Source: Protoeuglena noctilucae (lineage: Eukaryota). From it: a stretch of DNA of 64,000 nucleotides. The DNA lies in contig OY253682.1 of the NCBI GenBank assembly GCA_958009085.1, forward strand, positions 806,001 through 870,000. Direction: 5' to 3'. The position numbers and the translations under genes are program-made. A model generated the notes under the pieces. That model worked only from the letters and a program-made list of their open reading frames with translations. It did no database searches and was not told the origin of the DNA. Positions 1-63,800 of this stretch are shown here, in pieces. Each line of letters starts with the position of its first letter. Within the stretch, counting starts at the first letter, position 1.

Positions 1-2341
1 GATGATGGAGTGAGATAGTGATAGTTACCAAACACTCATCTGCACCCCATCGCTCTATCAGCAACGCCCTCACCAGTTGCTACCGACACACCCATAGTTA
101 ATACTATCATCTCCACCCCCCACCTGCATCAGCACCGCCACCGCCGCCTCCCGGGCGTCCCCCGCCCGGGCCCTCTCCTCGTCCCGCAGCGCACGCAGAC
201 GACGCAAGTGGCTGACCTCGGCCGCCCCGCCCAGCCGCTGCTGGCCGTCGTTGCCGCGCTTGGACGAATGCACTGCGGACGTGGCACGGTGTGAGACGTC
301 TCATGGCATGGTGTGGTGCACGCGAATGATACTGCATAGCCAGGATTAGAACTAGCTACTACAACAGGTGCGGTGATCTGTGGAAGGGCGTGGGATGGGC
401 AGGGTAACACAAATGTCGCACTCATGCACACTGATGCCATGTTTAAACAGAACACCATCTACCCAGCCCACCCCTCACCTGGCATGTCGATGAGCGTCGT
501 GGGCACGATGGCGCCCTGCGGCTTCCCCCCCGACGCCACGATGAGCTCGTTGAGCCACTTGTGCACCCCGGACATGTTGCCCACGTTCAAGGGGCTGTGC
601 ACCGCCACGCCTGGCTCAGACCGGTAGGCTGGGGGGACAGGAGAGGGATGCATGGTTTGGTGCATGACCGTGTGCCATGATCCGTGTATCCATGGCAACC
701 TTGCCATCCATGCTCATGGCAGTCACTGCACCCCGTCACAGCACTGCAACTGCCCCCGTGCTACCCCCTTGCTTCCCTGTCATGCCCCTCCCTGCCCCTC
801 ACACCACCACCACCACCATCACTCACTGTAGTGCCCGTCCCGCGTGTCCCTCTCCTCCCCCGTGGCTGCCAGTATCTCCTGGCCTGACTCAGTGATCACG
901 TAGAAGCGCATCCCACGTCGCTGGTCCGAGTACATGGACTTCTCCACCCTGCAAACACGGCAGACAGTCCGAGTACATGAACTTCTCCACCCTGCAATCA
1001 CGGCAGACAGTCCGAGTACATGAACTTCTCCACCCTGCAGGTGGTGCCATTTCGCAAATACCGCATCCCACTTATACTGCTGAATGGTTGTTGAGCATCA
1101 GGTGACGTCTGGTTAACCGCACAGCCATGCGCCATGCACCCTCACCGGAACCCCGTCAGGACGACGGGGGCCTGCTCGGCTGCCTGGGGTGGCGCTCCCT
1201 GCCCCGAGTCAGCCGGCGCTGCCGCCGTTGCCACCGGCTCTGCCCCGGGGACACCCGCCCGGTGCCGGGACGCTGCCATGACCTGCATACGCGAGCGACA
1301 GAGTGAAAGGTGGTATTCGCTATGCATGCCTGGCTACCTGGCTGTGGCTGAAAGCGCGTGGCTGTCCATGCTTTTATCTTGATGACTCCCGAAGCACGAT
1401 TCCTTCTCATTTCCACTAATTCTAAGCCCGTCTTGCTCCCGCTACTACACCCACCTCGCCTCGCTTCCTGTAACCATGCCCAGCGCCCCTCGCCTGTTGG
1501 AGGAAGGCCATGAGCTCCTTGCGGTTGTGGGCGGACAGGGACCCGAACTGCTGCACGGCATCGGTGTTCTTGTAGTGGTAGTGGGCATCTCCTTGAGAGG
1601 TCTCCTCTCCCTCCGCAGCTGCGACCGGCGAGGGCAGAGGGCCACGTCGCACGGGCCAGGGTAGCGCGGCGGGTGCAGTGCGGATGAATGGCTAAAGGGC
1701 AGTCTGCGCCCACGACGCCCCGTGCAGCTCACCCAGCACGACGCGGCCCTCATTCGTGGTCAGGTAGTACTTGATGATGCGCGCCTTGCCCTTCTTGATT
1801 TTCTCCTCCTTGAAGTCCACGAAGAACTCGTTCGGGGCCAGGACGAGCGCCGGCGGCTGCGCGGGGCGAGGCCAGGGCGGGCGTGAGATGAGAAGGACTG
1901 CAGCATGAGCGCGAGCGCGAGCGCGGGAGGCTCGGGAAGTCCTGGTGCGGGTCGCCGGACCTCAAACATTGCTACATGAAACGGACCTCCCTGATTGTGG
2001 CGCAAAGGGACGCAGCGATGGCCACGAGGGCGCATCCCAGCGCTCCCGGCAGCGCCATCTCGCGCGCAGGCAAAACCATGCCAAGCCCACTTCACGGACG
2101 AAATTACGTGCTGAAACCAATTCAGCGGAGGCTGAAGCGGGCGCAGAGGATCCGTGGAGAGTCGCGGGGCGATCATTGCAGAAAAGGCGGGGCAGAATGA
2201 CACCTCCAAGACCACGCAAAGCGATGATGAGGCGGGGATTTGCACAGTAAGTACCGATAGCAGCTTGCAGCGCACATCCCGCTCCCAGCGCCCGCTCACC
2301 GGCGGCTCGGGGGCAGCGGGAGCTGGCTGCGGCGCCATCAT
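1..2341 (-). CDS. Spliced hypothetical protein with two tandem copies of a ~65-aa domain resembling the N-terminus of plant BAH/Agenet proteins; runs off the left edge
   Basis: Exons give copy 1 FKEEKIKKGKARIIKYYLTTNEGRVVL|VAAAEGEETSQGDAHYHYKNT..HNRKELMAFL and copy 2 FRVEKSMYSDQRRGMRFYVITESGQEILAATGEERDTRDGHYS|YRSE..NMSGVHKWL. Splice sites flank each exon. The family resemblance is from memory only. Confidence 0.6.
924..1039. repeat. 43-nt tandem repeat (about 2.7 copies) spanning a splice acceptor
   Basis: GTCCGAGTACATG(G/A)ACTTCTCCACCCTGCA starts at 924, 967 and 1010. On the minus strand each copy reads tgcag|GGTGGAGAAG. Confidence 0.95.
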
Positions 2342-2753
2342 GCGGAAGAAGGATAGCAGCGACATTCGAAACGCGGGAATCTAATCCGCGCTTAGATGAA
2401 CACTACCCCGTCCCGCTGGACCTTTGAAAGGCGCCTGCCGCGGACGCTAGGGTGAGACGGGCGTGTTTTGCTTGCAACAGGAACGGCAGAGCGCCCTTCA
2501 ATTTTCTCGGGGGCTCGCCGGTCTCAGCGATGACAGATTACCAAGGAACCGCGACAGTGAGCCATGGATTGCGACGATTTGCGAATGACGGGTTGATTTT
2601 GATGCTCCTTGCCAGTCAGCGCCGGTGCCCAATGCCAGCCACGCTCTCTCTTCAAGCCTAGCACAAGAACCCTGCCCATCCAGAGTCCTACGGCAGCCAA
2701 CCGCCTCCCTGGGCGTCGTTGCCGTCGTTAGGGTGGCCACACGGCGGATGGCC

Positions 2754-20716: not shown

Positions 20717-20773
20717 GAGTACAGGGCATTGATGCACCGGACGTCACGAGCCGCATCCGGCGCGTGAGCTACG

Positions 20774-35258: not shown

Positions 35259-38200
35259 ATGGGAGTCCAGGGCCTCTGGGCGCTGCTGGAGCCCGTGGGC
35301 CGCCGCGTCAACATCGGTGAGATATTCATCGCGGCCTGTCATTCGCTCATTGTCTGCGCGGCAACTATCATCGCGAGAGCCCGCCGGACGCCGCGGGGCG
35401 ACGAGGACGACGGGGCACTTGGAATTATGGCTCTGGGCCCGTGCCATGGATTTGTCCGCGCTCGAAGAGGACCCATGTGTGTACAGGTCATGCATATGCA
35501 ACTGTTCTGTCCACCCACAGAGTCCATGGCGAACAAGAAGGTCGCGGTGGATGCCTCCATCTGGCTGATGCAATTCCTGCGCGCGATGCGGTGAGTGGGC
35601 CGCGACGCTCGCATCCGACTGGTGTTCCGTTACGTATGGGTCTACTGCGCCCTCGCGGTGCCGCTGCTCAGCGTACCCCGCGCCTCCAGCAGGCACAGCG
35701 GGCGTCCTCGCAGCACGCGGCGTGGCTAGCTCGCCGCTGCTCGTCGGATCCCACATCGAGCATCCTTGCGAGCATCTCCGCTCGTTCTGCGTCCTTCTCA
35801 GGGACGAGCGGGGGGATCTCGTCCGCAACGCGCATCTCCTGGGCTTCTTCCGACGCATCTGCAAGCTCCTCTTCAACCGCATCCGCCCGGTCTTCGTCTT
35901 CGACGGCGCCACGCCCGCGCTCAAGAAGCGCACCGTAGCGGCCAGGAGGCAGCGCAGGCGAGGGCAGGAGCGGCTCGCGCGCGCGCGCGGCTGCATTACC
36001 GCACTGCGCAGCCACGCCGCGACGCCGCACGGGCCGTTCGGGGTCATCCGGGAGACGATTTGGGAAGTCCTTTATGCCGCGCAGGTTTGCCCAGGAGGCT
36101 AAGCTGAAGCGCGCTGCCGAGAAGCTCCTCATCGCGCGCCTCAAGCAGCGCGCCGCGATGGAGGTGCTGGGAGGAGGTGAGGAGGATCAGATGGCTGATG
36201 GCTGGCGTGACCTTGATGTCGCGATGAGGTATATCCTGGCAAGAAAGCGTTTGCCCCGTTGTTTTCTCAGGGGAGGGCGACGAGGGAGAGGGGGCGGGTG
36301 CAGTGGAGGACGGCGGCGCTGCAGTGGCGGGAGACGAGGTGAGGGCGTTGATACATGCATATGCATGTGTTCATATACATGATAGTGTGTTGTGCATATG
36401 ACTCGCTGTTTGACTCGCACAGCGTCTCTATAGATGGATGGTCGTGCGTGACCTGGGCATGACCTGTGCTGCTGTGACGTTGCATGAATCGCAGGGTGCA
36501 GAGGAGAGAACCGAGGCGGAAGCGGGGCCCTCGAACGCGGCAGCTGTCGGCAGGGGAGAGGAGGCGAGCGGTGGGAGCGGCGCGGGTGGTAGGGAGGGTG
36601 GTATGGCTGGTGTGCGTGGTGCGAAGAAGGGAGCAAGTGGGGCGAACAAAGCGAGTGGAGCAACAGGGGCAGGCGCCGGCAGTGCGGGTGCCGCTGCCCG
36701 CCGCCGTGGCTCCGGCCGTGCCCAGCATCGCAGTGAGGCGGTGCGAGGGGCGGTGCGGGAGGCCATGGGCAGGGCCAACACCCTGGGGGAAGCGTCGACA
36801 GGTGAGGGAGGTTGAGAGGCAGTGATACTCAACTTTTGGGGTTATACTAAGAGATGGGTGCTGTGGGTGGCACTTACTGCATGGGGAACTACCGCAACTC
36901 TGCGAACACTGCAACCCTCACTCAACAGTTATCTCTTGCCCCCCCACGTTGTGCAGGGTCCGAGAGCGGTGGGGAGGGCGGTGAGGACTCCTCCAGCAGC
37001 GGTGGGGACATTGCCCTGCCAGAGGACCTGACGTCGCTGGACCCGGCCGTGCTTAGGTGAGAATGAGCCCCTTTTCCTGTTACCACCACTACTACCCTCC
37101 CCATCTTTGCCACCCCCACTGCCACCCCCATTGCCACCCCCACTGCCACCCCCACTACCACCCCCACTGCCAACCCCACTGCCACCCCCACCGCCACCCT
37201 CACCCAACCCCCCCCTTCCCCTTCCAGCAACCTCCCCGCGTCCGTCCAGTTCGACATCCTCCAGAAAGCCCGGGACCAGCAGTTCTCCAAGAACCGAGAG
37301 ACGTTTGCCGCCGTGGCAGCCGCCCCCAAGGGCTTCAGCTCGGCCCAGATGCAGAGTTATTTGAAATCGGTGGAAATGAGGCGGAGAGTCGAGGAGATTC
37401 GAAGGGCGACCAGGGTTGCTGGGAAGGAAGGGGTGGAGGCACGGCCGTTGGTGGCTGATAGGGGCAGGGAGTATGTCTTGACTAAGAAGGGTGGGGGTGC
37501 GGGTGGGGGGCAGAGGAAGGGACGGGGGTGGTGGGAGGATCAAGAGGGGTTGGATGGGAAAGGGGAGGGGGAGGGGGCGGGGGATGTGGGGTGGCTGGGG
37601 GTGGGGTCAACGGGGGCGGTGGTGGGGGGTGGGGGTGCGGGTGGTGGTGGTGGAGGTGGAGGTGGGAGGGGGTGGGGGGAGTTTGGGGAGATCGCGCCGA
37701 TAAAGGCGGAGGGTGGGGATGCAGGGGCTGGTGGGGGTGCGGGTGTGGGTGTGGGTGGGGGTGGGGGTGGTGCGGGTGTGAGTGCTGGGGCGGGTGCGGA
37801 TGCGGGTGGCGTGGATGTGGATATGGATGTGGATATGGATGTGGATATGGAGATACCAGAGGGCTTGGCTATTGATGATTTGTTGGAGGATGGTTGTCAA
37901 GGGTCATCTGGGGGAGAGTCGTTGCAATGGGAAGAGGAGGAGGGGATGGGGGGGATAGGGGTGGGAGATGCGGGGGGGCAGATTGCGCAGGTGAGGGTTG
38001 GGTGGTGGGGACGGGGGTGGGGGAGGGAGGGGGCCAGATTGCGCAGGTGAGGTGTGGGAGGGGTGGGGGTGAGGGTGGTAGTGAGGGTGGGGGTGAGGGT
38101 GGCAGTGAGGGTGGCAGTGGGGGTAGCAGTGGGGGTGGCAGTGGGGGTGCAGGTGTGCTGGCCACTTTTGCGCTGGAGAAGCGGAAGCATAGAGTTGTCT

Positions 38201-41200
38201 TACTACTTTTACTATTACTATTTCCCATACAATTACCTAATCATCTCCCCCCAGGTGGCCACCCGTGTTCTGGAGGAGCGGGAGCAGCGTCGCCACTGGC
38301 GGGAGAGGGCGGCCGTGCGCCAGAAACTGTGGAGCCGGACGGCGGGGTTCGTCATGGGTCGCAAACTCGCGGACTGGACGGGTGAGGGTTGAGGGTTGGT
38401 GCTTAATGGCTGGTTGTGTGAGGGGGTGTGTTGGGGTGGTTTATACGGTGGGGGTCATTCTCCTCATACTTTTTGGTACCCATCTTTCTTATATCCATCG
38501 ACGCCCCTCTGCTCTGCCTGTCACCCGCAGAAAAGGATGGGGAGGGGAAGGGCGCGGGCGGCCACGGCATGAGTGGGGGTGAGAGCGATGGGGTGGAGTG
38601 GGTGGAGGAGGGGAATGGTGCGGGTGGCAATGCAGTGGGTGGCAATGCGGGTGATGGTGAGAGCGGGAGCGATGGGGTGGAGTGGGTGGAGGAGGGGAGG
38701 GATGAGGGTCGCGTGGCTGACGGCGGCGCTGACAGTGGGCGTAGGAATGGGGTTGCAAGAAAGGGTCAAGTGGTGGCGTTGGGTCTGGAGGACTCATCGG
38801 GAGACGAGGGGTTTACTGCCACTGGTACTGGCATGCGCCAGAAAGGGAGCATCGGTGCGGGTGCGGGTGTAGGTGCCGGTGCGGGTGTGGGTGTTGCGAG
38901 GGCGGGGCGTGGGGTGGTGGTGGTGGGGAGTGATTCAGAGGGAGGGGAAGGGGAGGAGGTGGATAAGGCGGAGGGGGAGGGGGCGGTAGGAGCACGGGGG
39001 GAGGGAGAGGGAGGGGTGCCAATCGCAGCGGGGCAGGGTGCGGTGCAGGGTGCAGTGGAGAGTGGGTTACAATTGGCACAGGGAGCAGATCAGGGTGCAG
39101 CGAGAGGTGGGTCGCCACAGCCACCGACGTCGCAGCCACCCTCGCCACTACCATCGCCAGCAGGGCAGCCTCTGTTGGTGGCTGAGCAGGGCTTGTCATC
39201 GCCAGAACAGGGCTTGCCACTGGCAGAGCAGGGTTTGGGATTGGCAGAGCAGCATCTGTTGTCGGCAGAGCAGGGGGCAGAGCAGGGCGTGCGATTGGCA
39301 GATGAGGGCCCGTCCCAGTCAATGGCAAGTCGTGATGTGGAGGGTGCGGCTGCCCTAGCCCCTCCCACGCATGCTGCCACTGCCCCCGCCACTACCGCCA
39401 CCCCAGTTGCTACCACCAACCCAGCTACCACCACCGCCGCCCCAGCTGCCCCAGCCACAGCCACCACCGCCCCCGCTCCCACCCCAGCTGCAACAATCAA
39501 CGCAACCGCCACCACCAGCGCTGCCGTCCCACCCACGACCATCACCGCTACCACTGCCGCCCCTGCTACCACCGCCACTCCAGCTGCCCTACCCACCATT
39601 TCTGACCCAGCTGCCCCAGCTACCACCCCCACCCCCGCCCCCTCCGCCCCCCTCTCCGCGTCTGCCCTGGCCTCTGCCGCGCGCCGCGAGGCTGGGGAAT
39701 CGGATCTCCCCCACGTGGCCCCGATTGAGGACTTGGAATCTTACCTGGATGGACTGGAGAGGGAGGCTGGGGTGCTGGGCAGGGACGTGAGGCAGGCGAT
39801 GAGGCACGCGGACGCACCCACGCCCGAGGTGAGTTGGTGAGGGTGAGTTGGTGAGGGTGTGGGAGAAGAAGGTGCGAGGCGTTGGAGGGTTGTTAAGTGT
39901 GTGTGGCGTGTACGGATGGGTGGGGGTGTGGGTGTGGGTGTGGGTGGGTGGGATCTATGGCTTGCCTGATATAGTCGTTCCCTCCCTCACAGCCATAACT
40001 CATTTACCACATCCCAACCATGTCTCAATCTCTCTCCCCATCCATCCCCAGATGTACACGGAGTGCCAGGAGCTCCTGCAGCTTTTCGGCCTGCCCTACA
40101 TCATCGCCCCGACCGAAGCCGAGGCTCAGTGTGCTTATCTGGAAAGACAGGGACTGGTGGACGCGGTGATTACCGATGACAACGACGTGTTCCTGTTCGG
40201 TGCCGAAACCGTGTTCCGGCGACTATTCCAGGAACGGCAATGGGTGGAGGAGTACCGCATGTCTGACGTTTCGCGCGAGCTGGGTCTGACACGGGATGAC
40301 CTCGTCAGAATGGCGTTGCTGCTGGGGTCCGATTACACGGAGGGGGTGCAGGGGGTGGGGATCGTCAATGCGGTGGAGGTGCTGAGGGCTTTCCCAGGCG
40401 ATGAAGGGCTGGCAAAGTTCAAAGAGTGGATGAGGGGGCCGGACGAGGAAGTGTTGGAGTTGGCGGGGGTGGGGGGGGAGGGGGAGGGTGAGTGGTGGGG
40501 GTGGTTGGTGGGGGTAGATGGGGAGGGTGAGTGATTGGGGAGTTGAGTGGGGGTGGGGGGAAGGGAGAGGGTGAGTGGTTGGGGGGTAGTGGGGGTGGTG
40601 GGGGAGGGTGAGTGGTGCAGTATAGCCAGGCTACCATGGACCATGTTAACCAAAGCACCTGCCACCCTTGCTATCCAACCTCGCTCGCTCACCCCACCGG
40701 CACGCACCCACTCTCGCTCACCGCCCCCTCCCCCACCCAGACACCGACGCTCCCCTGGCTCGCGAGTTCAAATCCCGCCACAAACGCGTCCGGCGCACCT
40801 GGCAGGTGCCCGAATCCTTCCCCTCCCAGCAAGTGGTGCAGGCCTATTTAAATCCGAGGGTGGATGCGGATAAGACGAAATTCACCTTCGGGAGGCCCGA
40901 TTTGGAGATGCTGAGGTGAGTGGCATGGGAGGAGATGTGAGGGTGGCATGTGGTGTGATGTGAGGCTGTGAGGAGAGGTGAGGGGTTGCGAGGGAGGAGT
41001 GTGCAGTGCGGTACGTCAGTCGCTGTCACTGCCAACCCACTGCCACTCCACAGCCACCCCACTTCCACCCTCACCCTCACCCCCCCTACCATCCCTTCAG
41101 GTCCTTCTGCCAGTCTCGCTTCGGCTGGGCGGCCCCCCAAGTGGATGCGTTGGTGGTGCCCGTGCTGCAGGCCTGGGAGAGGCGCGAGGTGCAGTCGCGG

Positions 41201-41755: not shown

Positions 41756-42346
41756 AGGAGGAGTGGTGTTGCTTAGCGGCAGGCTTGGTTGCAGGAGTGG
41801 GCAGTGCTGTTCATGTCGCTTGGTTGTTGCTACTATTTGAACAATTGCTGCTCCCAATGGCGGGAAGCACGTGGGCACGCTAAGAGCTAACAGTCGAGCG
41901 TTATGAAGCAAACCCCGCTACGCTAAGTTGGTCAAGATGTCATCGTCAATGTGACGAACTGATACGGAAAATCACACCGGAGGATGGAACAGATGCTAAG
42001 AGGCTAGCAAGCACAAGCAACGATGAGTGAGGGAGAGCGGCAGGGCAGGGAGGCGCGCTGCATGGGGCGCCGACCCACGTGCACACCCACATGCACACCC
42101 CTCAGTCGTACAGCCAACATCCATAACCTCATTGCACCCTGCACCCCGCCCCTTGCCACCCACCACCCCATCACCCCACTTGAGCAGGTAACTTTGAGTT
42201 GGTCACCGCGCCGTCACGGGTTGCTTAGCAGGCGACATCCCACCCACCACCCGTCACGCCATGACCCCACCCCTTGTCACCCACCACCACATCACCAATC
42301 ACTCTGTCGCCCCATCACCCCACCATCCTACGTAACAAACCCCTGG

Positions 42347-43085
42347 TCACCGCGCCGTCACCGGTCGCTTGGCAGGCGACATCCCCGCGGGCCCCGACCC
42401 CTTCAGCTTCCGCCCGCCGCCCTCCAGGTTCAGCGCCTCCGTCCGCAGACGCAGCGTCGCCTCGTGACGCTCCCAGGCCTCCTCCATCGCCCGACGCTCC
42501 GCCTGCCACCGCTGAATGTCGCGCTGGACGTGCGCGCACTCCGGGGCGCGCTTGTAGCCCATCTCCGTCAACGGGACCGCCGCGAGAGATCGCGGTTCTA
42601 ACACCGCCTCGTAGCCGTTCGGGTATCGCCTGGGAAAGCGCGGCAGAACGGGCGGGGCATGACACCGCAGCTGCAGTGAAGTGGACGAGGTCCCTGCGCG
42701 CGCGTGCGGCCCGCGCGGCTCACATAACCAGCCGCGCCGTCCCAGGATCTTGCGGATCGTCATACCGCACGCCCACCACCGTCACCGTCACGCCCAGCGG
42801 GGTGATGCACAGGTCGTTCGCCTGTGATGTGAAAGAAAGCCCGCGAAGAGTCGAACCGCGGCTTCTAAAGGCCATCCAAGAACGGCGCGATGATACTTGC
42901 AATCTGAAGGCTCCATGAGGTGCGCCTCGGATCCCGACGGGCACGGCGCCGGCGCACCGAGGCAGGCACATGCGCGCTAGGGCGACGGCACTCACGCGGA
43001 AGCCGAACGGCTCGACGTGCTCCGGCTCCGTGAAAATCTTCTTCCCCTTCTTCTTCCCCTTCCCCTCGCCCTTCTTCCCCGGCAT
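42347..43085 (-). CDS. Small hypothetical protein (Lys-rich N-terminus, coiled-coil C-terminus)
   Basis: MPGKKGEGKGKKKGKKIFTEPEHVEPFGFR|ANDLCITPLGVTVTVVGVRY..RYPNGYEAVLEP..HVQRDIQRWQAERRAMEEAWE. Confidence 0.65.
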
Positions 43086-51310: not shown

Positions 51311-54300
51311 ATGAACAAGATATCCTCGTTGCTTCAGGTGAGGGAGCGGGGCCCGCAGCTACTTCACGCACCGCACAACATGGAACTGCGCATCCGACAT
51401 CTCACGCGCGCGCCCCTCGCCGAGGCCGGACGCTGGGACCCTCGCGACGGCGTGGCCGGCATCGACGCCTCTCATCGCGATGTCACCGCGTGATCCCCGC
51501 TCCCCGCTTTGCACCGCAGCTGCCGGCTGACCCGCCGGGTCCCGAGCTCTCCCTCACCCCCGGCCAGCGCCTGGCTGTCGCGGCTCGCGAGCTCCTGGAC
51601 TCCACCGGGCCACGCTCCTCGCGCGGCATCGAGCGCCCGAGCCTGCTATGGGAGGGCGGGCCGCGGGGATCCGGGCGAGTCGCTGCGCCGAGCTGGGCTG
51701 CACGTGTCCTGAACTGACCCAACACAACTGCGTCACCCGCTCCGCTCCCGGCCACTCAACCTGCTTAATCTGACTCCGGGCCACTGTTCTGCTCAGCTCA
51801 GCTATCGATCGCTCGCCTTGCTTACCCTGCTTTGGCCATCACCGTCGAGTCACCCTGCCTGCCTCCTTGCTCCCGCAGTCCCCAGAGCGCCCGCGTTTCC
51901 GCCGGCGTCGAAGTGAGTCCGCTCAGCGCTTAGTACGCATTCCCTCGCATCAACCCGATTTGATCCTTGTACCAAGCCCTGCCGTTGCCCTTTGGACTGC
52001 CGCTCGCACGCTGCACACTGTGCGTCTCGCATTCCCACACTGCACCATCTCTACCAAGCCCTCCTTCACCGCCATTCATCATCATTACCCCACCCCCTTC
52101 CCCGTCTGCCCCCAGCCCGCCTTCCGCACCGCCCCCTCCGCTGGCCTCGGCATGAGCGGCACCCTGGCATCCCAGCTCAACGCCCTGCACGCCGCCGCGG
52201 ACCGGGAGATGGAGTCCCTCGCGAAGGGCCTGCACAGTGCGGCGGCGGCGAGGACGGGGCCCTTGGCCCCGTATGGCGCGCACCCTCGCCTTGACCTGGA
52301 CAGGGCCGGGGCTGAGACGCCAACCGGCAGATTGGGCGACATGGACGAGCGGGGTATGGCGACGGCGATGGGACACATGGCGAGCACCATCGGGCGGGCC
52401 GCGGAGAGCGCCGACAGCCCCCATCGCCCGAGAAACGCGCGAGGGGCGGTGGCACCCCGCGTGGGGGTGGTGGCCCGAGACTCGCCACGGGCCAGTCGTT
52501 CCGATCGATCCACGGCAGCGACGACAGCGCGTACCGGGGCCACCACACGCGCGCGGAGGGTGCGCCTGCAGCATCGCCGTCCCGACGGAGGGGCGCGCAC
52601 CCGTTGCTGGCGGGCGGTGAGAGCTTGGAAGAGGAGGTGGGGAGCGCGAGGCGGATCCTGACGCTCTTGTCGCGCACCCCGCACGACGCGAAGCTGCTGG
52701 CGGAGTTCCGGGGGGCCCTGAAGCGCATCCGGGTGGCGAGGCGGTACTGGCGGCCCCAGCGGACGCGGTCGTGGAGGGCAGAGGACCTGGAGGTGAGCAA
52801 TTAGAGAGGGTGGTGGTGGTATTGGTAGTGGCAATGTTGATACTGGTAGTGGTAGTGATAGTGGCATTGATAGTAATGGTGGTAGTGCTGGTGAGGTAGT
52901 GGTAGTGGTAGTGGCGGTACTGGCGGCCCCAGCGCACGCGGTCGTGCAGGGCAGAGAACCTGGAGGTTAGCATTTAGAGAGGGGTGTTGGGGTGACTGAT
53001 AGTAACTGTGTATTGGTGAAATAATGATGTGATGGGTTGTGGAGGGCGGAGGACCAAAGCTCTCACTGCAACCCTCACCCCCTTACCCCCGCAGCGTGCG
53101 GCCGAGGTGGCCCCTCTCCCCCTAGACTGGGAGTCGGTGCTGTGGCGGGTGCTGGTGGGCCCCGATCGCGTCACACGAACGCGGGGAGAGCGACTGGTCA
53201 CCACCATCGCAGAGACCAGGAGGTCCCTCCGCAAGCACCTCCCTGTGCTGCAGCAGGCATTCGATGCGTACCACGCCGCGCCGTGCCTGGCCACGGGGCT
53301 GGGGGGCGGTGCGGGGGCGACGGGGGTGGCGGGGGCGGGGGGGAGGGAGAAGGAGAGGGAGCAGGTGAGGGGTGGGGTGAGATGAGAGAGATGAGATGGT
53401 GGAAGCAGGTGAGGGAACAGGTGAAGTCGGGCTGCGGTTAGTGCGAGAGAGAGGGAGAGGGAGCTGGTTCGTGATTTGTGCACTCTGTTACCCATCGCAC
53501 ATCGCCACTGTTACATTTCCCCTTACACGCAGGCCCCCTCCCACGAGAGTCCCGACGCCCCCTCTGCCCACGCGCACTCTGCTTCTGCGGGGGAGGAGCG
53601 GCTGGGGGCAGTGCCGGAGGATGAGGGCATGAGGGAGGGGCAGGTGAAAGGGGGTGTGAGTGACTGGGTGTAACGTGGCGTGAAGGGGTGTGACTGGGTG
53701 TGGATGGGTGTAGATGTGACTGGGTGTTGGTGTGAGAGGGGCAGGTGAGGGGAAGGGGGGGTGGAGGTAATCTGTTGCTCCTCTTTCTTACTCCCTCTCA
53801 CGCACCCCACCATCCCTTAACCCCACCCCCCAGGACTCCGACGGCGCCCCCCCCCGTGTCACACACCACCACCCCCCCTCACTCACTCACCCACTCACTC
53901 ACCACCAACCCGCCCCACTCACTCACTCACTCACCCCACCCTACCCCCCTCCCTCCACCCCAGGACTCCGACGGCGCCCCCCCCCGCCCCCCCAACGCCG
54001 ACGGCTTCACTTTCCCAGAGGACGACCTGAGGCGCTCCCGGGACGTTTCTGGCGACACCCTGACAGCGGGAGCACTGTTCCGGTTACTAAGGGAGCTGGA
54101 CGTGGTGATGGCGCCTGTGACGTTGGCGAGGCTGGCCAGGGTGGCGTGCACCACGCCGCTGCCGCCACGGGGGGATGCGGCCAAGGTGAGGGGTGTGGGG
54201 GTGGTAGTGAGGGGTGCGAGTAGGGGTGAGGGGGGTTGGTGGGGTGGTGGTGGGGGGATGAGGGGTGAAAGGTGAGGGTGAAGGGTGAGGAGTGGCAGTG

Positions 54301-57300
54301 AGGGTGGGCGGGCGAGAGCACCAACGTCCACTACCCCATTGGCTCTCACTCTCTTCCCTATCACCATTACTAAGATCCCCTCTCTCTCTCCCCTTCTCCC
54401 CCCAGGCCCTCAAGCGCACCCTGTCCCGCATGCCCAGCTCCAACGCCCTGGCTGCCCGGCGCCTGTCCCTGCGCACCTCGAGCATCAAGTCCCTTCGCAA
54501 GGCGCTGTCGGCAGAGACGGCGGCGGCGGAGGCGGGGGCGGGTGAGGGTGGGTGGGGTGGGAGTGGGGATGGATGGGGGGGGGGTGAAGTGGGGTGGGTA
54601 AAAAGGGGTGGGGTGGGGTGGCTGATGGGAGTGGAGTGGCATGAAATAGGGTGGGGTGGGTGAGAAGGGGTGCCGTGGTGTTGTTTGTGTACGGTATGAG
54701 TGGACATGCACTGTCAGTCGTGCTCTTCATATGTTCATAATCATATGTCTCTCGTCGCCCATCGCAGCTGCGGTGCAGTCCCCCTCCCCCGGGGAGGAGG
54801 AGGCGGGGGCAGAGGGGCGCACGAGCGAGGGGGGGAACGAGGAGGGGCAAGTGAGAAGGAGTGGGATGGGGGTGGATGGGATAAGTAGATGAGATGACAG
54901 TGGATGGGTGCATGAGGGCGAAGGCTGGTGCCAACAAGCCACGCTTGCAACGCCTGCAGTCTCCATGGCCACCCTACCCCACCCGCCCCCCGGCAGCCGT
55001 CCCAGCCCCTTTCAATTTCTACTGCCACACTTCCACACCCCTTCACTTTCCATTGCCACCCTTTAGCAACCCCTCCCCACCCCCGCAGCCAGCCCAACCC
55101 CTTCATTTCTTGATGCCACTTACCACCCCACTCCACCCCCACTCCCCGCAGCCATCCCCGCCCGTCAGCGCGGCCGAGGCAGACCCCCACCCGACCCCGC
55201 CCCTGTCCACCCTGGGGGGCCAGATCCGCCGCACGCCCACCGTAAAAGGCGAATCCGCCGCCGCCGGGGATCGAAGCGCCGACCGGGGCGCTGGGGCGGA
55301 GGCGGGGGAGGGGGCGGGGGCCGCCAAGCGTCGGTTGCAGAAGCAGCCGTCTAAGAAAGCCTGGTCCATGTCTATGCGGCCGCCCGAGCCCAAATTCGAG
55401 GTGAGGGTTTGGATTTTTGACATGGGGGAGGAGGGTGGGTGGGATTGGTGGGGGTGGCGTGCCAGTGTGCGAGTTGCTCGGGAGACGAGTTGCTCTGTGC
55501 GTACTGCCGCCCTGTGTGCTATCCACCCACACTGCCACCCCCACTGCCACCTTCACCCTCACCCCCACTGCCACCCCCACCACCACCCCCCACACCATCA
55601 CCCCTCCCTCCCCCCAGGGCGGTTTGGGCCCGTCCCTCTCCCTCGCCCCCCGCCGCCGCAACTCCATCCCCGCCGCCACCCACGCGACCTCCGCCAAGCG
55701 CATCGCCGCTCCCTGCGACTTCACGGGCGGTCCCTACGACCGCCAGCGCCGCATGGACGTCTTTCACTTCGTGGAGGCTCTGCTGCGGGTGTCGCACGTG
55801 GTGTTTGGGGGGCGGGTGGGTGGGCCCAACCCCAGCCGCCTCGGGAAGGGCGCCGGGCAGCAGGAGGGGGGCGGGGAGGACGAGCTGTCGCCGGTGAGGG
55901 GTGGGGTGGTGGATGGGATGCATGGTGGGATGCATGGGATGAGTGGTTGTTAAGCGAGGGTGATGAAATGTTGCCGGCGAGGGCGTGGGGTGGATGGATG
56001 GGGAATGAATTGTCGATGCCTTAGCTCTGCAATCAACCACACCTGTTTGCCCAACCACTCAGCCCCTTACACTCCCAGTCACTCACCCACAGGCCGAGAA
56101 GCTCGACGCCCTAACCCTGCCAATCAACCACATTCCCTTGCAAATCCACCAATTTTCTTGCCAATCCTAATCATTTCCTTATCCTTATGTGCCCCGACAC
56201 CCCCCCAGGCCGAGAAGCTCCATGCCCTGGCCCTGCGCCTCGAGGCCTCCCTGGTGGTCCTGGGGGCGGAGATGGAGGGCATCCCCACGGGCAAAGCCCC
56301 GCCGCGGTCGCTGGGGGTGTCGATGCGGGGGCTGGCGTCCAGGCAGGGAGAGGAAGGGGCGGGGTTGGGGATGGGGATGGGTTTGGGTGTAGGGGTGGGT
56401 GGGGAGGGCGAGGGGGTCATGGAAGGGGTCATGGAGGTGCCGGATGCGGAGGAGGGGCTGTGGGACGCCACGGTGGGGGCAGGTGAGGGTTGGGTGGGTT
56501 GTAGAGAGGATGTGGGGTGGGTGGGGTCAGGTGCAGGTGCAGGGTTGTGCGGTGTGGGTTGCAATGCCATGTCCATCGCCGTTGTTACCCCTCGCAACGC
56601 TCTCTATTTTTCACAGCAACACCCTTACTACCACCCCCACCCTCACTGCTACCCCCACTGCACTGCCACCCTCAATACCACCCTCACCCCCACCCCTCAC
56701 CCCTCACCCGCAGCCCCCCGCCCTTCCCCCTCCGCCCCTCCCTCGGAGGCGGGTCTCTCCGAGGACCACACCCCAGCCTCCAAGGCAGACGCGATCTTCA
56801 CAGCCATGCACCACAGCCGCGACATCCACGAGGTCATCGGCCCCGCCGAGGGACTATTGCAGTGGGTGTTCACGTTCCTCGCCGTGCACAACTCCGTGGA
56901 CAGGGACGGGGAGGGTGCAGCTGCCGTGGGCGTGAAGGGCGAGGGGGAGTGGGATGCGGGGGCGGGGGCGGTGGCGGCACCTGTGCCCGCAGAGGGGTGC
57001 ACCGCGACGTTCAACGACGTGCTGCACCACTTGCTGGTCTGCGACATGGTGGGGAGGGAGGACGGCATCACGGCTGCCGCGGTGGCGAGGGCATTCCAAG
57101 ACACGACCGGGCAGGCGCCCGCACAGCCCCGCGTGCACCCCGCCAACCGGTGAGGGGCTGGCGGGTGGGGTGGGGGCGGATGCTTGTAGTGTGGATAACG
57201 GTTATACGTTCTGTGCTGCAGCCAGCCTCAGGAGCATGCCCTTGTCCCGACCCGCACGCTCCCACCGCTCCCGTCTCCCATCCGCTCGTCACGTCAACTC

Positions 57301-57539
57301 GCCCATGTGCACTTTCCCGCTTTCCCAGGGGCCTGGAGGTGACGTACGACGAATTCCTGGAGATGCTGGTGCGCCTGGCCCACACGGCCCGGCCCCTGGG
57401 CGAGAACGTAAGCGTGGCGGGGCAGCTTGAGCACCTGCTGCTGAATGAGGCTGTGGGCCTCCTGCCCGCCAGCGAGCGCGTCATTGGGCTGTGGCAGGCG
57501 CTCGAGAAGCTACCCACCTACTCCAATGCCGACTACTGA
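51311..57539 (+). CDS. Large multi-exon hypothetical protein with degenerate EF-hand-like segments; the start may instead be 52152
   Basis: Exon chain includes HLPVLQQAFDAY, TLTAGALFRLLRELDVV, RMDVFHFVEALLRVSHVVF, ATFNDVLHHL and EVTYDEFLEMLVRLAH; stop at 57539. Confidence 0.6.
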
Positions 57540-58038
57540 GCGAGATTGCTGTGGTAGTCCACCAACGCGGGTTCGGCTGGTAATTGAAGACGATCTGAGT
57601 AGGAACGCCTGGTGCGCTGACTAAGGCAGCTGCAGGTCTCCCCGGCCTGTCCACGCAGCACGCGGCACCCGCACCGGCATCGACGCCGACGACGGCGCAG
57701 GCGCCCGCCCACCGCTGACCTGGCGCGCAACCAGCACGGGGCATCGCCCACGCTTGTCCACGCTCCGACCGCGGGGCTCGGGGCCGGCGCTGCGCGTATC
57801 TTCATCGTGCAGCCGGGCAAGAGCGAGTGCGAGCCGCGGGCGACCATCAGCGCATCAGCGGAGTGCGAAAGCCGCAGCTTGGAAGTCACACAGCCCTCAG
57901 CCTCCCGGGGTCCGCGGCGCAAGCTTCCGAGTCCGGTTGGGGCGTCTGTCCGATAGGTGAGTAGTAATACATGTGCACGTCAGGACCGCGCAGGTGCCGG
58001 GCGTCGGCCGCGGCAGCTGCGGGCGCAGGGTGGGACGC

Positions 58039-59726: not shown

Positions 59727-60840
59727 GACGGCGGCTGTGGCAATGGCGGTGGCTGCGGGGCACTTAGGTAAGGGGCGTGCCAGTCTTACAACGGATGGCA
59801 GAGGTGCTTGCGTGGCAGCATGTGCAGCACCGTCGTCTTGCATGGGGCGTGCATGGCCTTTACAGTGCCTGTGCCGAAGTACGGAGGTGCAGCTGGGCGT
59901 GGCATGGACCGACTCACGGCTACTTTGCTGGCCAATCGAGCCCTGTCGACTCAACTGACTGTCAGCTCTACATCCTCCCCGCGCAGTGCTGAGGCAAGAG
60001 GTGGCCCTCAAGGGGTGGCCACGGTGGCCCCCATGCGGCGTGGCGAGGCAGCGCGCGGGTGACACCTGATTCGGTGCGGCAAGTCGAGCGGTGGCTGGTA
60101 GGACCTTATCCGGGTAGGGTAGGCTTGGCTCGTGGAGCATTGGGCAGCGTGGGCGACATTGATTGGGACGATGGCCGGGCAGACTGTCGACTTATATAAG
60201 TGGCGTCATCGACTGCGGTAGAGGACTTATTGCTGCAGCCTTTGCTTAGAAGCCCTGTTGGTACGCGCCTTGCTTTGAACTCCACAGCCCTCAGCGGCGA
60301 TATGCTCTGGCCCCCCGCCCTATGCTTTTTGCTGCGGGATGCGTGAGGCGAGGCCATGAGCGTACTCCACGTCCGCAGTTGGTGCAGTCACGATCGATCC
60401 TGCTGATTGAATGTGGCGAACCGCGTCCCAGCCTCACCTCCTGGCACGCTCCACCTCTGACGGGACGACCAGCAGCGCTGGCTCCTGAGGAGGTCTCAGT
60501 TGCGCGAGAGGACTAATCTGAGCTCAGCTGCGCATGATTGCTGTGCCGGGACGGCACGAGGAAGCGCGCTACGTAAAAGAGGCATACCCTGCGTGCGTTG
60601 ACCTGCGGTTTTGAGGACCGTGTGAGACCGGACGTTTTTCTGGGTGAAATACGTCATCAGTGTCGATATCGTGGCGGTCGCGCTGGCGCGTGGACGCCGA
60701 TAGTCGCGACGTGACGCGAGAGACCCGTGTGTGGGTAACCAGGCTGCCGGCGCTTCTGGATGTCGACCGCTGACGGGGCGGGGTGAGGGTACGCGCGTCA
60801 GGTTAAACCGTCTGGAAGCTTCCGAGGGCTGGGCGACGCC

Positions 60841-63800
60841 ATGGAGGGCCCGGGCCTGCTGGGTCAACTCGACGACGGCCACCTCCTGAACGCCGCCGAT
60901 GGGCCGCTCGCGTTCGGGCCGCGATGTCCCGCGTGCTACCTGCCACCAAACCGACTGTGCCTCGAGCGCTTCTCCGTCTCGCGATGGTGAGAGCCGCGCG
61001 CCGGCCGCGGGCGCGGGGGCCCTACCATACCCGCGGGATGTGACCCGCCGCGCGGCCCGCTCCCGGCGCCGTATCGCCGGCCGCGTGTGTACAATCTGGC
61101 ACATTGCGTGTATTTGTGTGCTCGGATTGCGTCGGGGACCGCGGAGGCATCCCCGGGCACGCGCCCTATGCTGTCGCACCACGCATGACCGTACGCGTCA
61201 CCCTGCCCGCACGCTGACCACCACTCGCCGCCATCAACCGCCCGCATATGCATTGATTTCTATCCATCTGCTAATCTCGATAGACAACTGTCCCCGCAAG
61301 CTCACCCGCGCGACTTCAGCAATCCCCCTGGCCGCACCGCCCCTCCCACACGCATCCACCCTCCCTCACCCCCTCCCCTGCCCCAGCCTTGGCCGCGGCA
61401 AGGCCCGGGAGGTCCTCGAGGCATTGGACGTGGACACGGGTCACACCGTAGCGTTGAAATGCTACCGACTTGGAGCGAGCTCGGTCACCCAAGCGAGGGC
61501 GGTGGCGGATGAGGTGGACATCCACTCCCGCATCGGTGAGGCGACGGGGGTAGGGTAGATGTGAGATTGGGAGTGTGACTGTGACTGGGAGTGTGACTGC
61601 GATTGAGAGAGTGAGAGTGAGACTGTTAGACCGGTGATGTTGGCTGCCACCCCCACTGCCACCCCCACCCTTGCCCTCACTGCCACCCTCACCCTCACTC
61701 TCACCCCCACTGCCGCCCTCACCCTCACCCCCAGACCACCCCCACGCCATCCCCCTCTGGGCCGCCTTCAAGGATCGTGAGTCCGTGTACATTCTACTTC
61801 CCTTAGCCGCTTATGGCGATCTCTGCAACAGCTTCGACCGCATCAAACACGACACGGCAAGCGTGGCGGAGGTGAGAGGGGATGGGGTGGTGTGTTTGTG
61901 ACACGGCCAGCGTGGCGTAGGTGAGGGATGGGGTCGTGGGGGTGTATGATATGATGGGTTTCATGTTTGGGAGACAGCGAGCGTGGCGGAGGTGAGGGGG
62001 GGTGGGGTAGGGGTTCATATAATGCTGGAATGTGATAACGATTAAGAGAGAGTGAGCGTGTGCAGTTGGCCTGAGTGCTTGGCCGTCCCCACCCCTTCCT
62101 TGCACCCACCACTCACCCACCCTCACTGCAACCCCCCCTCTCTCCCCCCAGCTCGTGGCCATGCCCCTCCTCAGCTGCCTGGCCCACTTGCACGAGCGAG
62201 GCATCGCCCACCGGGACATCAAACTGGAGAACGTGTTTGTGGGGTCGAGGGGCAACGTCATGCTTGCAGACTTTGGGCTGGCCGTGGAGCTGACTAGGCG
62301 GTGAGTGATATTTGTGATATGCACTAGTGATATATATACTAGCGATATGTACTATTGATATGCGCATGTCACTGTCTGAGTGTCATTTGTAATGAGGCAC
62401 TGGCGCTGGTGAAGCTGACTTCACACAGACCAAGCCCTTTCTTACCCTAGCACGCTCACATCACACAACCTCGCACCTCGCTACACAGCACCGCACCACC
62501 CCCACCCCCTCCCACCACCCCATTATCCCCTCCCCTCCCCTCTCCTTCCCCCCAGCCGCGCCCTGACTCAGGTGGGCACGCTGTCAGTCATGGCGCCAGA
62601 AGTGCTTCTGGCAGATCACGTGACCGGTGCCCAGGGCCCCCTTCGCTGCGAGAGGCACAGAGACGACAGGAGGGAGTACGGGACGGCAGCCGACGTGTGG
62701 GCGGTGGGAGTGCTGGTGTGGGAGATGCTGACAGGGACGGGTGAGTGGAGATGAGACGGGGTTAGGTGGGGGTGCTGGTGTGGGCAGGGGTTGATTGGTG
62801 AGTGCTTGGGCGGTGGGGTTGCTCGTGTGGGTGGGGGTGAGACGGGCGAATGGTTAGCATAGGTGTGGGTGAGCAGGTGGACTGTGGGTGGAGTGGCGAT
62901 ACCCATGGCTGCCACCGTCACTCCCACCCTCAACACCACCCCCGCTGCCACCCCCACTGCCACCCGTAACATCGCACTCTCACCCCTATCACCCCCCCAG
63001 TCCCCTACCGCGCCTCGTGTGACCGTGAGATGACCGACACCCATTGCCACCCTTAACACCCACCCCTCACCCCTCACCCTTACCACCCCCAGTCCCCTAC
63101 CGTGCCTCGTGCGACCGTGAGATGATCGAGACGATCGCCACTGGCATTCAGGACCACCCCTCCTATCCACGCCTGCCATCGGACGCAAGGTCCTTCATCG
63201 AGCAGTGCCTCACGTGGGACCCCGCCAAGAGACCCACGGGTGAGATGAATATTGCATATTTGTGCTTATTATAGTATACTATATGCATTGCATGTCTTAT
63301 ACAGACACATGTGTCGTTGCCATGTCTCACCTGGGACCCCGCCAAGAGACCCACGGGTGAGGTCACTATTACATATTCAAACATACGGATGTGTTTTTTA
63401 GTCACATGTATTCGCATGCATGCGGATGGCAACTGCGCACGCGCTACCGCAGTCACATCCACGGTCGTCGGATGTCCATGATAATTGTTACATCCTCCAT
63501 ATAATCACATCGATACAACTACACACCTTACCTGTCTTTCACCCCGCCCGTCTCACACACTACCCCCCCCACCCACCCCCGCAGCACGCCAGCTCTACGC
63601 CCACCCCTTCGTCACACAGCGAAGCAACTACGCAAACTGGCGGTCCCTCGCGCCCCCCCGATCCTCCATCGACGACAGGGTATGCCCTAACAACCAGGGC
63701 AATGCACCCAGCAACGTCAACGCCGGCGATGCGTACGGTTTGGACCGTGCCACCTCCCAACCCCACCACGCCCGCGGCCCCTCCGGCTCATCCCGGCATT

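Follow-up and report, generated by a model that had tools for sequence, protein, structure and literature searches.

Introns that carry copies of their own splice junctions in a 64-kb stretch of the Protoeuglena noctilucae genome

The first of the 37-bp tandem units that make up the minisatellite in intron 7 of human F7 spans the exon 7 donor; silent 5′ pseudo-sites result, and the donor-spanning units coexist with exclusive use of the authentic upstream site (PMC1557585). A potato RdRp gene is reported to have gained an intron when the 3′ part of one of its introns was tandemly duplicated along with the 5′ part of the exon that follows (PMC4974935). The same source refers to the Rogers (1989) model of intron creation via tandem duplication of an AGGT-containing exon segment, to the ATP2A1 example of Hellsten (2011) and to the internal gene duplications of Gao and Lynch (2009). 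Introners, which occur in marine algae and other eukaryotes, are elements of transposon origin that generate introns (PMC9481584).

In the window, by which we mean the whole 64,000-nt stretch of DNA analysed here, approximately one intron in six (about 17-20 introns in 64 kb) carries a copy of its own exon-intron boundary, hereafter an echo. Echoes of this kind are familiar from single genes; our literature search gave single-gene cases only, so the present density appears to be undescribed, as the original prediction had supposed. These observations show how introns may lengthen and acquire decoy splice sites.

Junction copies within their own introns

The original prediction comprised 16 echo sets (8 acceptor and 8 donor, with 20 adjacent copy pairs), all of which were recovered by realignment at the expected positions (table 1), with aligned lengths of 18-94 nt, identities of 78-98% and offsets of 43-173 nt. 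In all 20 pairs, the segment scored higher against its own copy than against any of the 105-106 other predicted introns; the weakest pair (55075-55095 / 55137-55158, 22 nt) scored 32, compared with a null maximum of 28. As a control for chance, 30-nt exon-only probes were aligned with their own intron, all other introns serving as the null. Own-intron copies were present at 19 of 212 junctions at a score of at least 24 (1.13 expected), at 15 junctions at a score of at least 28 (0.28 expected) and at seven at a score of at least 40 (0 expected), while the acceptor echo at 55075..55158 fell below significance with these exon-edge probes. An annotation-free self-comparison of the whole window (low-complexity filter on, offsets 30-320 nt, score at least 32) detected 21 local direct pairs, where about 0.67 were expected. 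Copies were found in direct orientation only. We conclude that the echo observation is confirmed as real and non-random, and three further echoes beyond the 16 sets were detected in the window.

Donor and acceptor labels are consistent with gene strand in six genes, three on the reverse strand (an unknown gene at about 0.9 kb, FemAB_like and P450) and three on the forward strand (XPG, an unknown gene at 52-57 kb and a kinase), in agreement with the prediction of echoes on both strands. Each copy matches its own junction best and the spacers yielded no family, which bears out the view that the echoes are gene-specific rather than a shared repeat family. Intron coordinates were taken from a crude gene finder, which recovered nine of 10 RNA-supported introns. 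One RNA contig stops at 52790, at most 2 nt from the donor at 52792, and it is at this one donor that RNA evidence points to use of the outer site. Pfam profile coordinates that are contiguous across exons support junctions in FemAB_like, the C-terminal half of P450 and the kinase; junctions elsewhere are those of the gene finder only, and the XPG gene models are doubtful.

Table 1. Echoes and related local copies in the window. Lengths and offsets are in nt; 'real' and 'echo' refer to the first exon base at acceptors and the last exon base at donors.
Feature	Position	Strand	Copies and spacer	Junctions	Support
A1, acceptor echo array, unknown gene	924..1039	-	43-nt unit x2.7, TRF 97% matches; unit joins the last 18 nt of the intron to the first 25 nt of the exon	predicted start 948; echo 991, 1034	gene finder only
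N1, donor-side echo, FemAB_like (newly found)	27271..27374	-	about 30 nt of exon end copied 73 nt into intron 27158-27342	exon end 27343; copy without donor motif	Pfam-contiguous junction
A2, acceptor echo, FemAB_like	27487..27592	-	46 nt, 83% identity, offset 61	real 27521; echo 27581, AG retained	Pfam continuity
D1, donor echo, FemAB_like	28015..28130	-	31 nt without mismatch (19 from exon, 12 from intron), offset 85	real 28112; echo 28027; donor scores identical	Pfam continuity
D2, donor echo, P450	31087..31241	-	21-nt block (20/21), offset 134; 57-nt tandem array in spacer	real 31224	profile continuity
D3, donor echo, P450	31607..31694	-	25 nt (22/25), offset 63	real 31676; echo 31613, GTAAGT-type	profile continuity
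A3, acceptor echo, P450	31787..31987	-	64 nt, 81% identity, offset 138; extra intron-only copy in between	real 31807; echo dinucleotide CG instead of AG	profile continuity
D4, donor echo	32806..32949	-	24 nt without mismatch, offset 64; also a degenerate third copy some 120 nt into the intron	real 32929	gene finder only
A4, acceptor echo array	33068..33404	-	four copies, unit about 100-105 nt	real 33092; echo 33191, 33293, 33397, each AG	gene finder only
D5, putative donor echo	37951..38061	+	56-nt tandem repeat, copies 37951-38005 / 38007-38061, both within predicted intron 37622-38254	donor-like motif twice; candidate junction only	
N3, G-rich array, XPG exon end (newly found)	40456..40617	+	period 44 x3.7, or 83 x1.9	four donor-like candidate sites	
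CDS-end copy (newly found); could alternatively be one further donor echo	42200..42382	-	39 nt (36/39), 144 nt downstream; G-rich spacer	source is predicted CDS end (stop at about 42347)	
D6, donor echo	52740..53003	+	91 nt, 89% identity, offset 173; spacer is hexamer microsatellite	real 52792; echo 52965, weakened site	RNA; independent DNA contig
A5, acceptor echo	53803..53986	+	29-nt identical block in 54-nt alignment, offset 130-134; 36-nt x2.6 array in spacer	real 53964; echo 53834	gene finder only
A6, acceptor echo, weakest case	55075..55158	+	22 nt, mainly C-rich tract plus acceptor motif		
A7, acceptor echo	56086..56236	+	35 nt (30/35), offset 116; 20-nt x2.4 array in spacer	real 56209; echo 56093	independent DNA contig
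D7, donor echo array, kinase	61851..62014	+	three copies, offsets 49, 71	real 61871; echo 61920, 61991, strong donor scores retained	kinase exon continuity; independent DNA contig
N2, donor echoes, kinase (newly found)	62698..62853	+	two degenerate copies, +62 and +109; source is last 20-43 nt of exon	exon end 62740	
A8, acceptor echo, kinase	62979..63141	+	72 nt, 85% identity, offset 92-94	real 63093; echo 63001	
D8, donor echo	63206..63377	+	55 nt (49/55), offset 117	real 63239; echo 63356, GT retained	independent DNA contig

Placement relative to junctions and intron context

Two origins had been proposed for the echoes: a duplication process centred on junctions, or a high local duplication rate filtered by selection. 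We modelled uniform placement on the actual exon and intron lengths and the repeat periods observed, with exon-internal duplications purged; of the duplications that remain, 52.6% should cross a junction and include 15 or more exon nt. When low-complexity sequence was filtered, a junction was spanned by 13 of 25 significant local repeats (chance expectation 1.2); without the filter the figure was 27 of 45 (chance expectation 2.5). As these shares match the expectation for uniform placement, targeting of junctions is unnecessary; a junction-centred process becomes dispensable, with a residual excess possible, and duplication followed by a selection filter is consistent with the counts. Donor and acceptor sides were affected equally (6 and 6, or 16 and 10). 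The position of the junction within the copied block fits uniform breakpoints: on average, 0.568 of the aligned block is exonic, compared with 0.653 ± 0.053 expected (P = 0.054). Relative to the period, by contrast, the exon share is too small for the model, at 0.364 against 0.58 ± 0.056 expected, with 0 of 20,000 simulations as low. Exon copies became much rarer away from the junction, as they must if the copied block is contiguous with it, from 14 of 207 probes at 0-30 nt to 1 of 203 at 30-60 nt, 0 of 183 at 60-90 nt and 2 of 152 at 90-120 nt.

A stricter count was junction-heavier than the predicted 53%. Hand-sorting of the 21 pairs (score at least 32, low-complexity filter on) gave 15 loci, comprising 11 that span a junction, two that are intron-only, one CDS end and one ancient protein repeat, with no purely intergenic locus across 15.4 kb of intergenic DNA. 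By hand calculation the excess over the model is only about P = 0.04 if an exon-anchored copy is detectable for twice as long, and the filter also masks intron-only repeats. With duplications elsewhere in introns as the proposed control, the broader counts reveal no junction excess; the strict count does lean towards junctions. The pair 52740 / 52913 had been listed as an 'internal' repeat through a gene-model error and is in fact junction-spanning.

The introns themselves are short (median 172 nt) and markedly polar, with a G-rich 5′ half and a C-rich 3′ half. Arrays detected by TRF cover 10.3% of intron bases, 2.6% of exon bases and 1.2% of intergenic bases; 36 of 47 arrays are intronic, and 67 of 693 intron-interior probes match a second site within their intron. 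The spacers that separate echo copies are of low complexity, and in five of the seven sets where the offset greatly exceeds the block the spacer holds a secondary tandem array (52810-52914, 53859-53949, 56118-56167, 31117-31234 and an intron-only copy in 31808-32148). Plain tandem arrays cross the boundary at 924-1039, 33068-33404 and 61851-62014. Elsewhere, identical blocks (31/31, 24/24 and 29/29 nt) are sharply bounded with unalignable flanks, which deviates from simple tandem duplication, where similarity over the whole period is predicted. The 17 echo-bearing introns are clustered in six of 23 gene models (permutation P = 0.0003), and echoes are absent from 10 of the 16 models with at least three introns; such clustering is not predicted by the duplication model unless mutation or constraint differs between genes.

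The suggestion that echoes create decoy splice sites holds at the level of sequence. The AG is intact in 10 of 11 acceptor echoes, with one lacking it, and the GT in 11 of the 12 donor echoes scored; six of these 12 reach at least the lower-quartile score of predicted real donors, and in four donor echoes the site is weaker over positions +3 to +6. The median length is 273 nt for introns with an echo and 149 nt for the others (P = 1e-5). Introns have therefore gained sequence from exon edges, as had been proposed, but only in that introns already present became longer; the pattern left when an intron arises from a duplicated exon was seen in 0 of 212 cases at a score of at least 24 (0.09 expected).

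Origin and persistence of the echoes

The echoes are probably relics of frequent short, direct, local duplications rendered harmless by splicing. Duplications would arise often in repeat-prone introns, presumably by slippage, unequal exchange or fill-in repair, as blocks of about 20-90 nt that now lie 43-173 nt from their source. A wholly exonic duplication would alter the protein and be purged by selection, a wholly intronic one would be harmless, and one that crosses a single boundary would be harmless while the spliceosome stays with the outer copy of the splice site. The mRNA would then be unchanged, because the inner copy and everything between the two become intron. With introns this short, about half of all tolerated duplications would overlap a boundary and no aiming would be needed. 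Afterwards the G-rich or C-rich low-complexity spacer may turn over fast by slippage, the complex exon-derived block would be altered by point mutation only and the source copy would be fixed by coding selection, so that the echo remains sharp. Such fast turnover, which the sharp blocks require, is plausible, and the decoy sites are presumably silent. The outcome would be longer introns with exon-derived sequence and largely intact decoy sites.

A mutational process specific to introns or to the vicinity of junctions offers another reading, in which transcription or splicing of the polar introns is accompanied by DNA breaks or fork stalling, repair proceeds by short direct duplications, and copies favour splice sites and particular genes. 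The strict count, the clustering by gene, the intron polarity and the sharply bounded blocks that straddle junctions would all suit this, as would a density of tandem arrays in introns that is 4-9 times that of exons or intergenic DNA. We nevertheless consider it unlikely, given that both broader counts and the junction position within blocks agree with uniform placement and that repeats internal to introns are frequent. The intergenic deficit may stem from constraint or a different composition in a compact genome, and both the breaks and a link to transcription are hypothetical. Appreciably less probable is that each pair represents a long target-site duplication around an insert at a staggered break, whether a small mobile or introner-like element or filler DNA. 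In many sets the 22-113 nt between the copies align with nothing next to the source copy, and the arrangement matches an insertion that is tolerated thanks to the splice site within its duplicated target. The spacers, however, are generic G-rich or C-rich sequence with no discrete family, their matches to other introns are short (72-91%), the pure tandem arrays have no spacer and five of seven long spacers owe their length to secondary arrays.

Retention of echoes for a function, as regulated alternative sites, efficiency-tuning decoys or seeds of mini-exons, seems to us more improbable still. It would account for the splice dinucleotides kept in most echoes and the scores of half of the donor echoes, and the intron gained in the potato gene through a duplicated intron 3′ side and exon 5′ side offers a parallel (PMC4974935). 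The gene finder read the acceptor echo in the kinase as an in-frame 24-nt mini-exon (63001-63024), but this is disfavoured by kinase profile coordinates that run from 156-193 to 204-255 and leave it little space. Identities from 78 to 100% give no sign of conservation beyond recency, some echo sites are weakened or lack AG, and echoes are concentrated in a minority of genes with long introns, as expected of tolerated junk. That the duplicates are assembly artefacts, for instance collapsed or doubled alleles, is scarcely credible. Short near-identical neighbours in repeat-rich sequence are error-prone for assemblers, but independent marine metagenome contigs match 50604-53314, 54653-57780, 59636-62482 and 62555-64000 with 0-1 differences and reproduce six echo sets, which largely refutes this explanation for 50.6-64 kb; in addition, the copies differ from one another by 2-22%, and several have unique sequence on their flanks.

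Relation to described systems

Our preferred explanation, local duplication tolerated through splicing, can be set against the systems introduced above. With introners it shares the setting of marine algal genomes and the addition of intron sequence by insertion or duplication at the DNA level. Introners form genome-wide families of similar elements (PMC9481584), whereas each echo matches its own junction only and the spacers have no family. In common with the Rogers model, short internal tandem duplications remodel exon-intron structure with the mRNA unchanged. A new intron formed in that way would copy the downstream exon start in its 5′ part and the upstream exon end in its 3′ part (PMC4974935), a signature absent from the 212 cases, where echoes lengthen existing introns instead. 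The potato RdRp duplication has the geometry of our acceptor echoes, with branch site, C-rich tract, AG and exon start duplicated jointly. There, a cryptic donor is spliced in combination with the two acceptors, which yields a new intron and exon (PMC4974935), whereas the upstream copy here seemingly remains within the old intron, the sole mini-exon candidate being disfavoured.

The F7 case concerns one locus in one gene with site choice proven experimentally (PMC1557585), whereas the window has about 17-20 such introns affected on donor and acceptor sides, many with copies split by turned-over spacers, and RNA backs the site choice at one donor only. The two are alike in that direct tandem units include the exon end and donor, with identical or near-identical pseudo donors downstream of the authentic site. 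In F7, use of the authentic upstream site keeps the mRNA unchanged, and we liken the echoes to this arrangement. Its layout recurs at 61851-62014 and 40456-617, and on the acceptor side at 924-1039 and 33068-33404.

Junction echoes and the gene models behind them

The introns of the window carry echoes, extra and degenerate copies of an exon/intron junction placed inside its own intron, and these are real, dense and gene-specific. All 16 echo sets of the original prediction, eight at acceptors and eight at donors, were recovered on realignment. Their 20 adjacent copy pairs align over 18-94 nt at 78-98% identity, with offsets between source copy and echo of 43-173 nt, and every pair outscores the same segment compared with each of the 105-106 other introns, which bears out the claim that each echo belongs to its own gene. 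When 30-nt exon-only probes were aligned with their own introns, 19 of the 212 junctions (both ends of 106 predicted introns) matched at a score ≥24, where 1.13 were expected using other introns as the null; at a score ≥28 the figures were 15/212 and 0.28. Self-comparison of the whole window yielded 21 local direct pairs (approx. 0.67 expected), and a single automatic criterion identified 17 of the 106 predicted introns as echo-bearing. An independent metagenome assembly matches the regions containing six echo sets with 0-1 differences. Individual features, including copies that the original prediction had not listed, are collected in the table.

Individual features of the window: echo sets, additional copies and the RNA-supported GC-AG intron
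Feature	Coordinates	Strand	Remark
GC-AG intron, RNA-supported	50053-50217	-	ribosomal acidic protein gene
Weakest echo set	55075 / 55137		by alignment score
Pair entirely within a predicted intron	37951 / 38007		candidate junction link only
Acceptor echo of kinase exon	63001-63024		called as a 24-nt exon by the gene finder
Additional donor-side copy	intron 27158-27342		not in original prediction
Two additional copies	after kinase exon ending 62740		not in original prediction
Additional four-fold donor-like array	40456-40617		not in original prediction
Additional copy of predicted CDS end	42200 / 42344		not in original prediction

The window has a G+C content of approx. 65% and is tightly packed with intron-rich eukaryotic genes. 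Pfam searches of 115 open frames identified a chromate transporter, a clathrin adaptor small chain, a calcium-dependent kinase and a second kinase, RAMP4, ankyrin proteins, a FemAB_like protein, two P450s, XPG, fructose bisphosphatase, a ribosomal acidic protein and TIC20, the last of which indicates an organism with a plastid. Genes were modelled with a purpose-written exon-chain finder that combines codon log-odds, splice-site weight matrices and frame consistency, with strand territories taken from a first pass. It returned 23 gene models with 106 introns (median 172 nt) and recovered nine of the 10 RNA-supported introns. The finder is crude: the RNA-supported exon 52116-52792 was split, the FemAB_like gene was fused with the adjoining ankyrin gene, and the XPG exons that it places in G-rich sequence are questionable. 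All statistics refer to the 64-kb window. With 106 predicted introns spread over 23 gene models, intron density differs from that of Pelagomonas calceolata, for which PMC9481584 gives 0.45 introns per gene.

Exon borders could be checked against protein profiles in single-exon searches. The exons of the FemAB_like gene cover profile positions 17-161, 162-199, 203-257, 257-320 and 322-359, those of the P450 cover 258-307, 312-347 and 355-430, and those of the kinase cover 106-149, 156-193 and 204-255; these contiguous coordinates mean that the borders are correct to within a few residues. Echo boundaries accordingly rest on Pfam continuity for the FemAB_like gene, the C-terminal half of the P450 and the kinase, on an RNA contig at 52790, and on the gene finder for all others.

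Nearly the whole of 53501-63500 is present in runs labelled ‘organism A’ and in marine metagenome runs, and approx. 30% of it in marine metatranscriptome runs. RNA contigs back 10 introns, nine GT-AG and one GC-AG, while our own gene models predict GC donors in 18/106 introns. The RNA-supported share of 1/10 compares with approx. 56% GC-AG junctions in Emiliania huxleyi, according to PMC4028052. Among the 15 joints listed of 62 from RNA contigs mapped over 44001-64000, none lies at an echo. One metatranscriptome contig (X9 record 22) runs gapless for 824 nt over 54716-55539, spanning predicted introns and exons, and stems from RNA that had not been spliced or from DNA that persisted in the library. 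A lower RNA contig depth over echo-rich genes was set aside, as contig depth cannot rank genes.

Predicted introns ≥120 nt (77/106) are strongly polar, with a G-rich 5' half (39-53% G over the first approx. 100 nt) and a C-rich 3' half (40-55% C over the last approx. 90 nt). A common motif family occurs in G-rich form by donors and as its complement by acceptors, and 35 of 40 internal donor-like hexamers fall within the first 60% of the intron. In predicted folds, 0.55 of pairs join the two intron halves (0.37 in shuffles), and fold stability is modestly above that of shuffles (median z -0.86, 67 introns). Outside genes, there are two 31-nt tandem repeats at 9781-9842 (2.0 copies) and 15190-15271 (2.7 copies), with similar, partly palindromic units that may form one small dispersed family.

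Form of the copies and their splice sites

The echo copies are all direct (head-to-tail) and adjoin the authentic splice site. Each straddles the junction as a block of 21-73 nt with sharp edges, of which 18-53 nt are exonic and 3-43 nt intronic. Contiguous tandem arrays are formed at 924-1039 (43 nt, 2.7 copies), 33068-33404 (four copies), 61851-62014 (three copies) and 40456-40617. For the remaining sets the blocks lie 22-113 nt apart, separated by low-complexity spacers that are rich in G in donor sets and in C in acceptor sets. These spacers match other parts of the 64-kb window only over short low-complexity stretches and constitute no family; in five of the seven sets whose offset is far above the block length, the spacer carries a tandem array of its own, which is younger than the echo copies.

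Splice consensus is largely preserved in the copies. AG is retained in 10 of 11 acceptor echoes, and among the 12 donor echoes scored there are 11 with GT and one with GC. Scores of six of the 12 donor echoes and four of the 11 acceptor echoes equal or exceed the lower quartile for predicted real sites. Four donor echoes are weaker at positions +3 to +6. The real donor at 28015-28130 and its echo share a stretch of 31 identical nt. Reading frame and Pfam continuity suggest that the outer, authentic site is probably the one used, with the inner copies silent; at one donor, 52792, an RNA contig leaves the genome at 52790, ≤2 nt away, in the real copy.

The acceptor echo of the kinase exon at 63001-63024 includes that exon's own internal donor-like motif, which allows it to be taken for an in-frame 24-nt mini-exon repeating eight residues. 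The kinase profile runs from 156-193 to 204-255 across the direct join, and the exon call is probably spurious. The mini-exon reading nevertheless illustrates a route from an echo to a new exon. Echoes also mislead gene finders: the one used here called this probably spurious exon and missed donor 52792.

The FemAB_like gene (PF04339; 26690-28554, - strand) has at least four spliceosomal introns, three of them echo-bearing. This family is best known from bacteria. A 147-aa FemAB_like exon query found 80 loci in metagenome contigs at 43-60% identity, none near enough to come from a relative of the alga; the gene may be an old transfer into it. In the P450 with the most echoes, exon coding scores are low and no cysteine is seen in translated exon 31225-31494 (-), which covers profile positions 355-430, where the heme-ligand cysteine lies in P450s. 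A search for longer proteins with a P450 exon query yielded none at E ≤ 1e-5. On sequence grounds, this P450 may be inactive or divergent.

Origin of the echoes and its implications

Two explanations accompanied the original prediction: duplication centred on junctions, or a high rate of tandem duplication filtered by selection. The latter fits the data and the former is not required. In a placement model, duplications of the observed periods were distributed uniformly over the real gene structures, and events were retained if wholly intronic or if overlapping exactly one junction with ≥15 exon nt; 52.6% of retained events overlap a junction, simply because the introns are short. Observed significant local repeats in introns with 60-nt flanks overlap a junction in 13 of 25 cases with the low-complexity filter on (1.2 by chance), where one of the 12 ‘internal’ repeats is in fact the donor echo 52740 / 52913, misassigned through a gene-model error, and in 27 of 45 with the filter off (2.5 by chance). 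Copies of exon probes are confined to the first 30 nt from the junction (14/207, then 1/203, 0/183 and 2/152 with increasing distance), as contiguity with the junction demands. Tandem repetition is a general trait of the window's introns: 67 of 693 probes from intron interiors recur within their own intron, and TRF arrays account for 10.3% of bases in introns, 2.6% in exons and 1.2% between genes. Echo-bearing introns have a median length of 273 nt, compared with 149 nt for the others. The position of the junction in the aligned block fits uniform breakpoints (mean exon share 0.568 versus 0.653 ± 0.053 expected, P = 0.054). Measured against the full period the exon share appeared too short (0.364 versus 0.58 expected), an anomaly that fades with the aligned block as the unit. 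The best account of the echoes is frequent short local duplication together with tolerance by splicing: short local duplications would be common in repeat-prone introns, and splicing would make those that overlap a boundary harmless.

The echoes could conceivably be the visible part of something more specific, an intron-specific and strictly direct duplication process, tied to polar introns and particular genes and acting preferentially near splice sites, that continuously lengthens introns with exon-edge sequence and seeds decoys and mini-exons. We consider this unlikely, given how closely the observed junction shares follow uniform placement, yet some observations point towards it. Hand sorting reduced the 21 self-comparison pairs to 15 loci, of which 11 span a junction, two are intron-only, one lies at a CDS end and one is an ancient protein repeat, with no purely intergenic locus in 15.4 kb. 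By hand calculation, the junction excess at this strict count reaches only about P = 0.04 if exon-anchored copies persist in detectable form for twice the time, and may be above zero, with the caveat that the low-complexity filter conceals intron-only repeats. The 17 automatically identified echo introns are also clustered in six of 23 gene models (P = 0.0003), and of the 16 models that contain three or more introns, 10 are free of echoes. Finally, identical blocks of 24-31 nt adjoin sequence that can no longer be aligned. For this and for the short exon shares to fit frequent duplication, the low-complexity spacers would have to turn over rapidly; we infer that they do, and the secondary arrays within spacers support it. 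If the specific process were real, it would represent a lineage-specific engine of intron growth rather than generic slippage plus selection.

The sequences also provide evidence that existing introns lengthen via local duplication that draws in exon-edge sequence. Such lengthening has been discussed for single genes; a genome-scale quantification was not found in the open-access literature. If the density in the window (17/106 introns) holds genome-wide, there would be thousands of natural experiments in which an authentic site faces a near-identical copy 40-170 nt away. Their competition bears on how the spliceosome selects one of several equivalent sites, and on the extent to which a cell tolerates mis-splicing and decay.

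Comparison with known systems

An introner- or MITE-type shared family was not seen within the 64 kb, where the match of each echo to its own junction beats all 105-106 other introns. Polymerase-theta end joining produces templated insertions in which short copies of neighbouring sequence occur in both orientations. This candidate was rejected: inverted exon-edge copies occur at 1/212 junctions at a score ≥24 (1.1 expected), which is chance level, compared with 19/212 for direct copies. Intron birth by duplication of an AGGT-containing exon segment, the Rogers model, would leave a copy of the start of the downstream exon at the 5' end of the intron and one of the end of the upstream exon at the intron's 3' end. 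That signature is absent in the window, with 0/212 at ≥24 (0.09 expected) and 1/212 at ≥20 (1.05 expected).

Closer parallels come from individual genes. In Drosophila, PMC2891723 credits tandem duplication for some novel intron positions. For a potato RdRp gene, PMC4974935, which cites Rogers 1989, Hellsten 2011 and Gao and Lynch 2009, describes a new intron that arose when the 3' side of one intron was duplicated along with the 5' side of the following exon. The same geometry is seen in eight acceptor sets here. In the potato type the two acceptors both function and enclose a new exon; here the upstream copy appears to remain part of the old intron. In the minisatellite of human F7 intron 7 the first repeat unit runs across the donor, and the pseudo-sites are silent because the upstream site is chosen, as PMC1557585 reports. 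The echoes share with it direct copies, one unit over the real boundary and pseudo-sites that keep the splice consensus. The open-access literature text gave single-gene precedents only, in line with the initial impression that no description at such density was known; the echoes are a known kind of event at unusual frequency.
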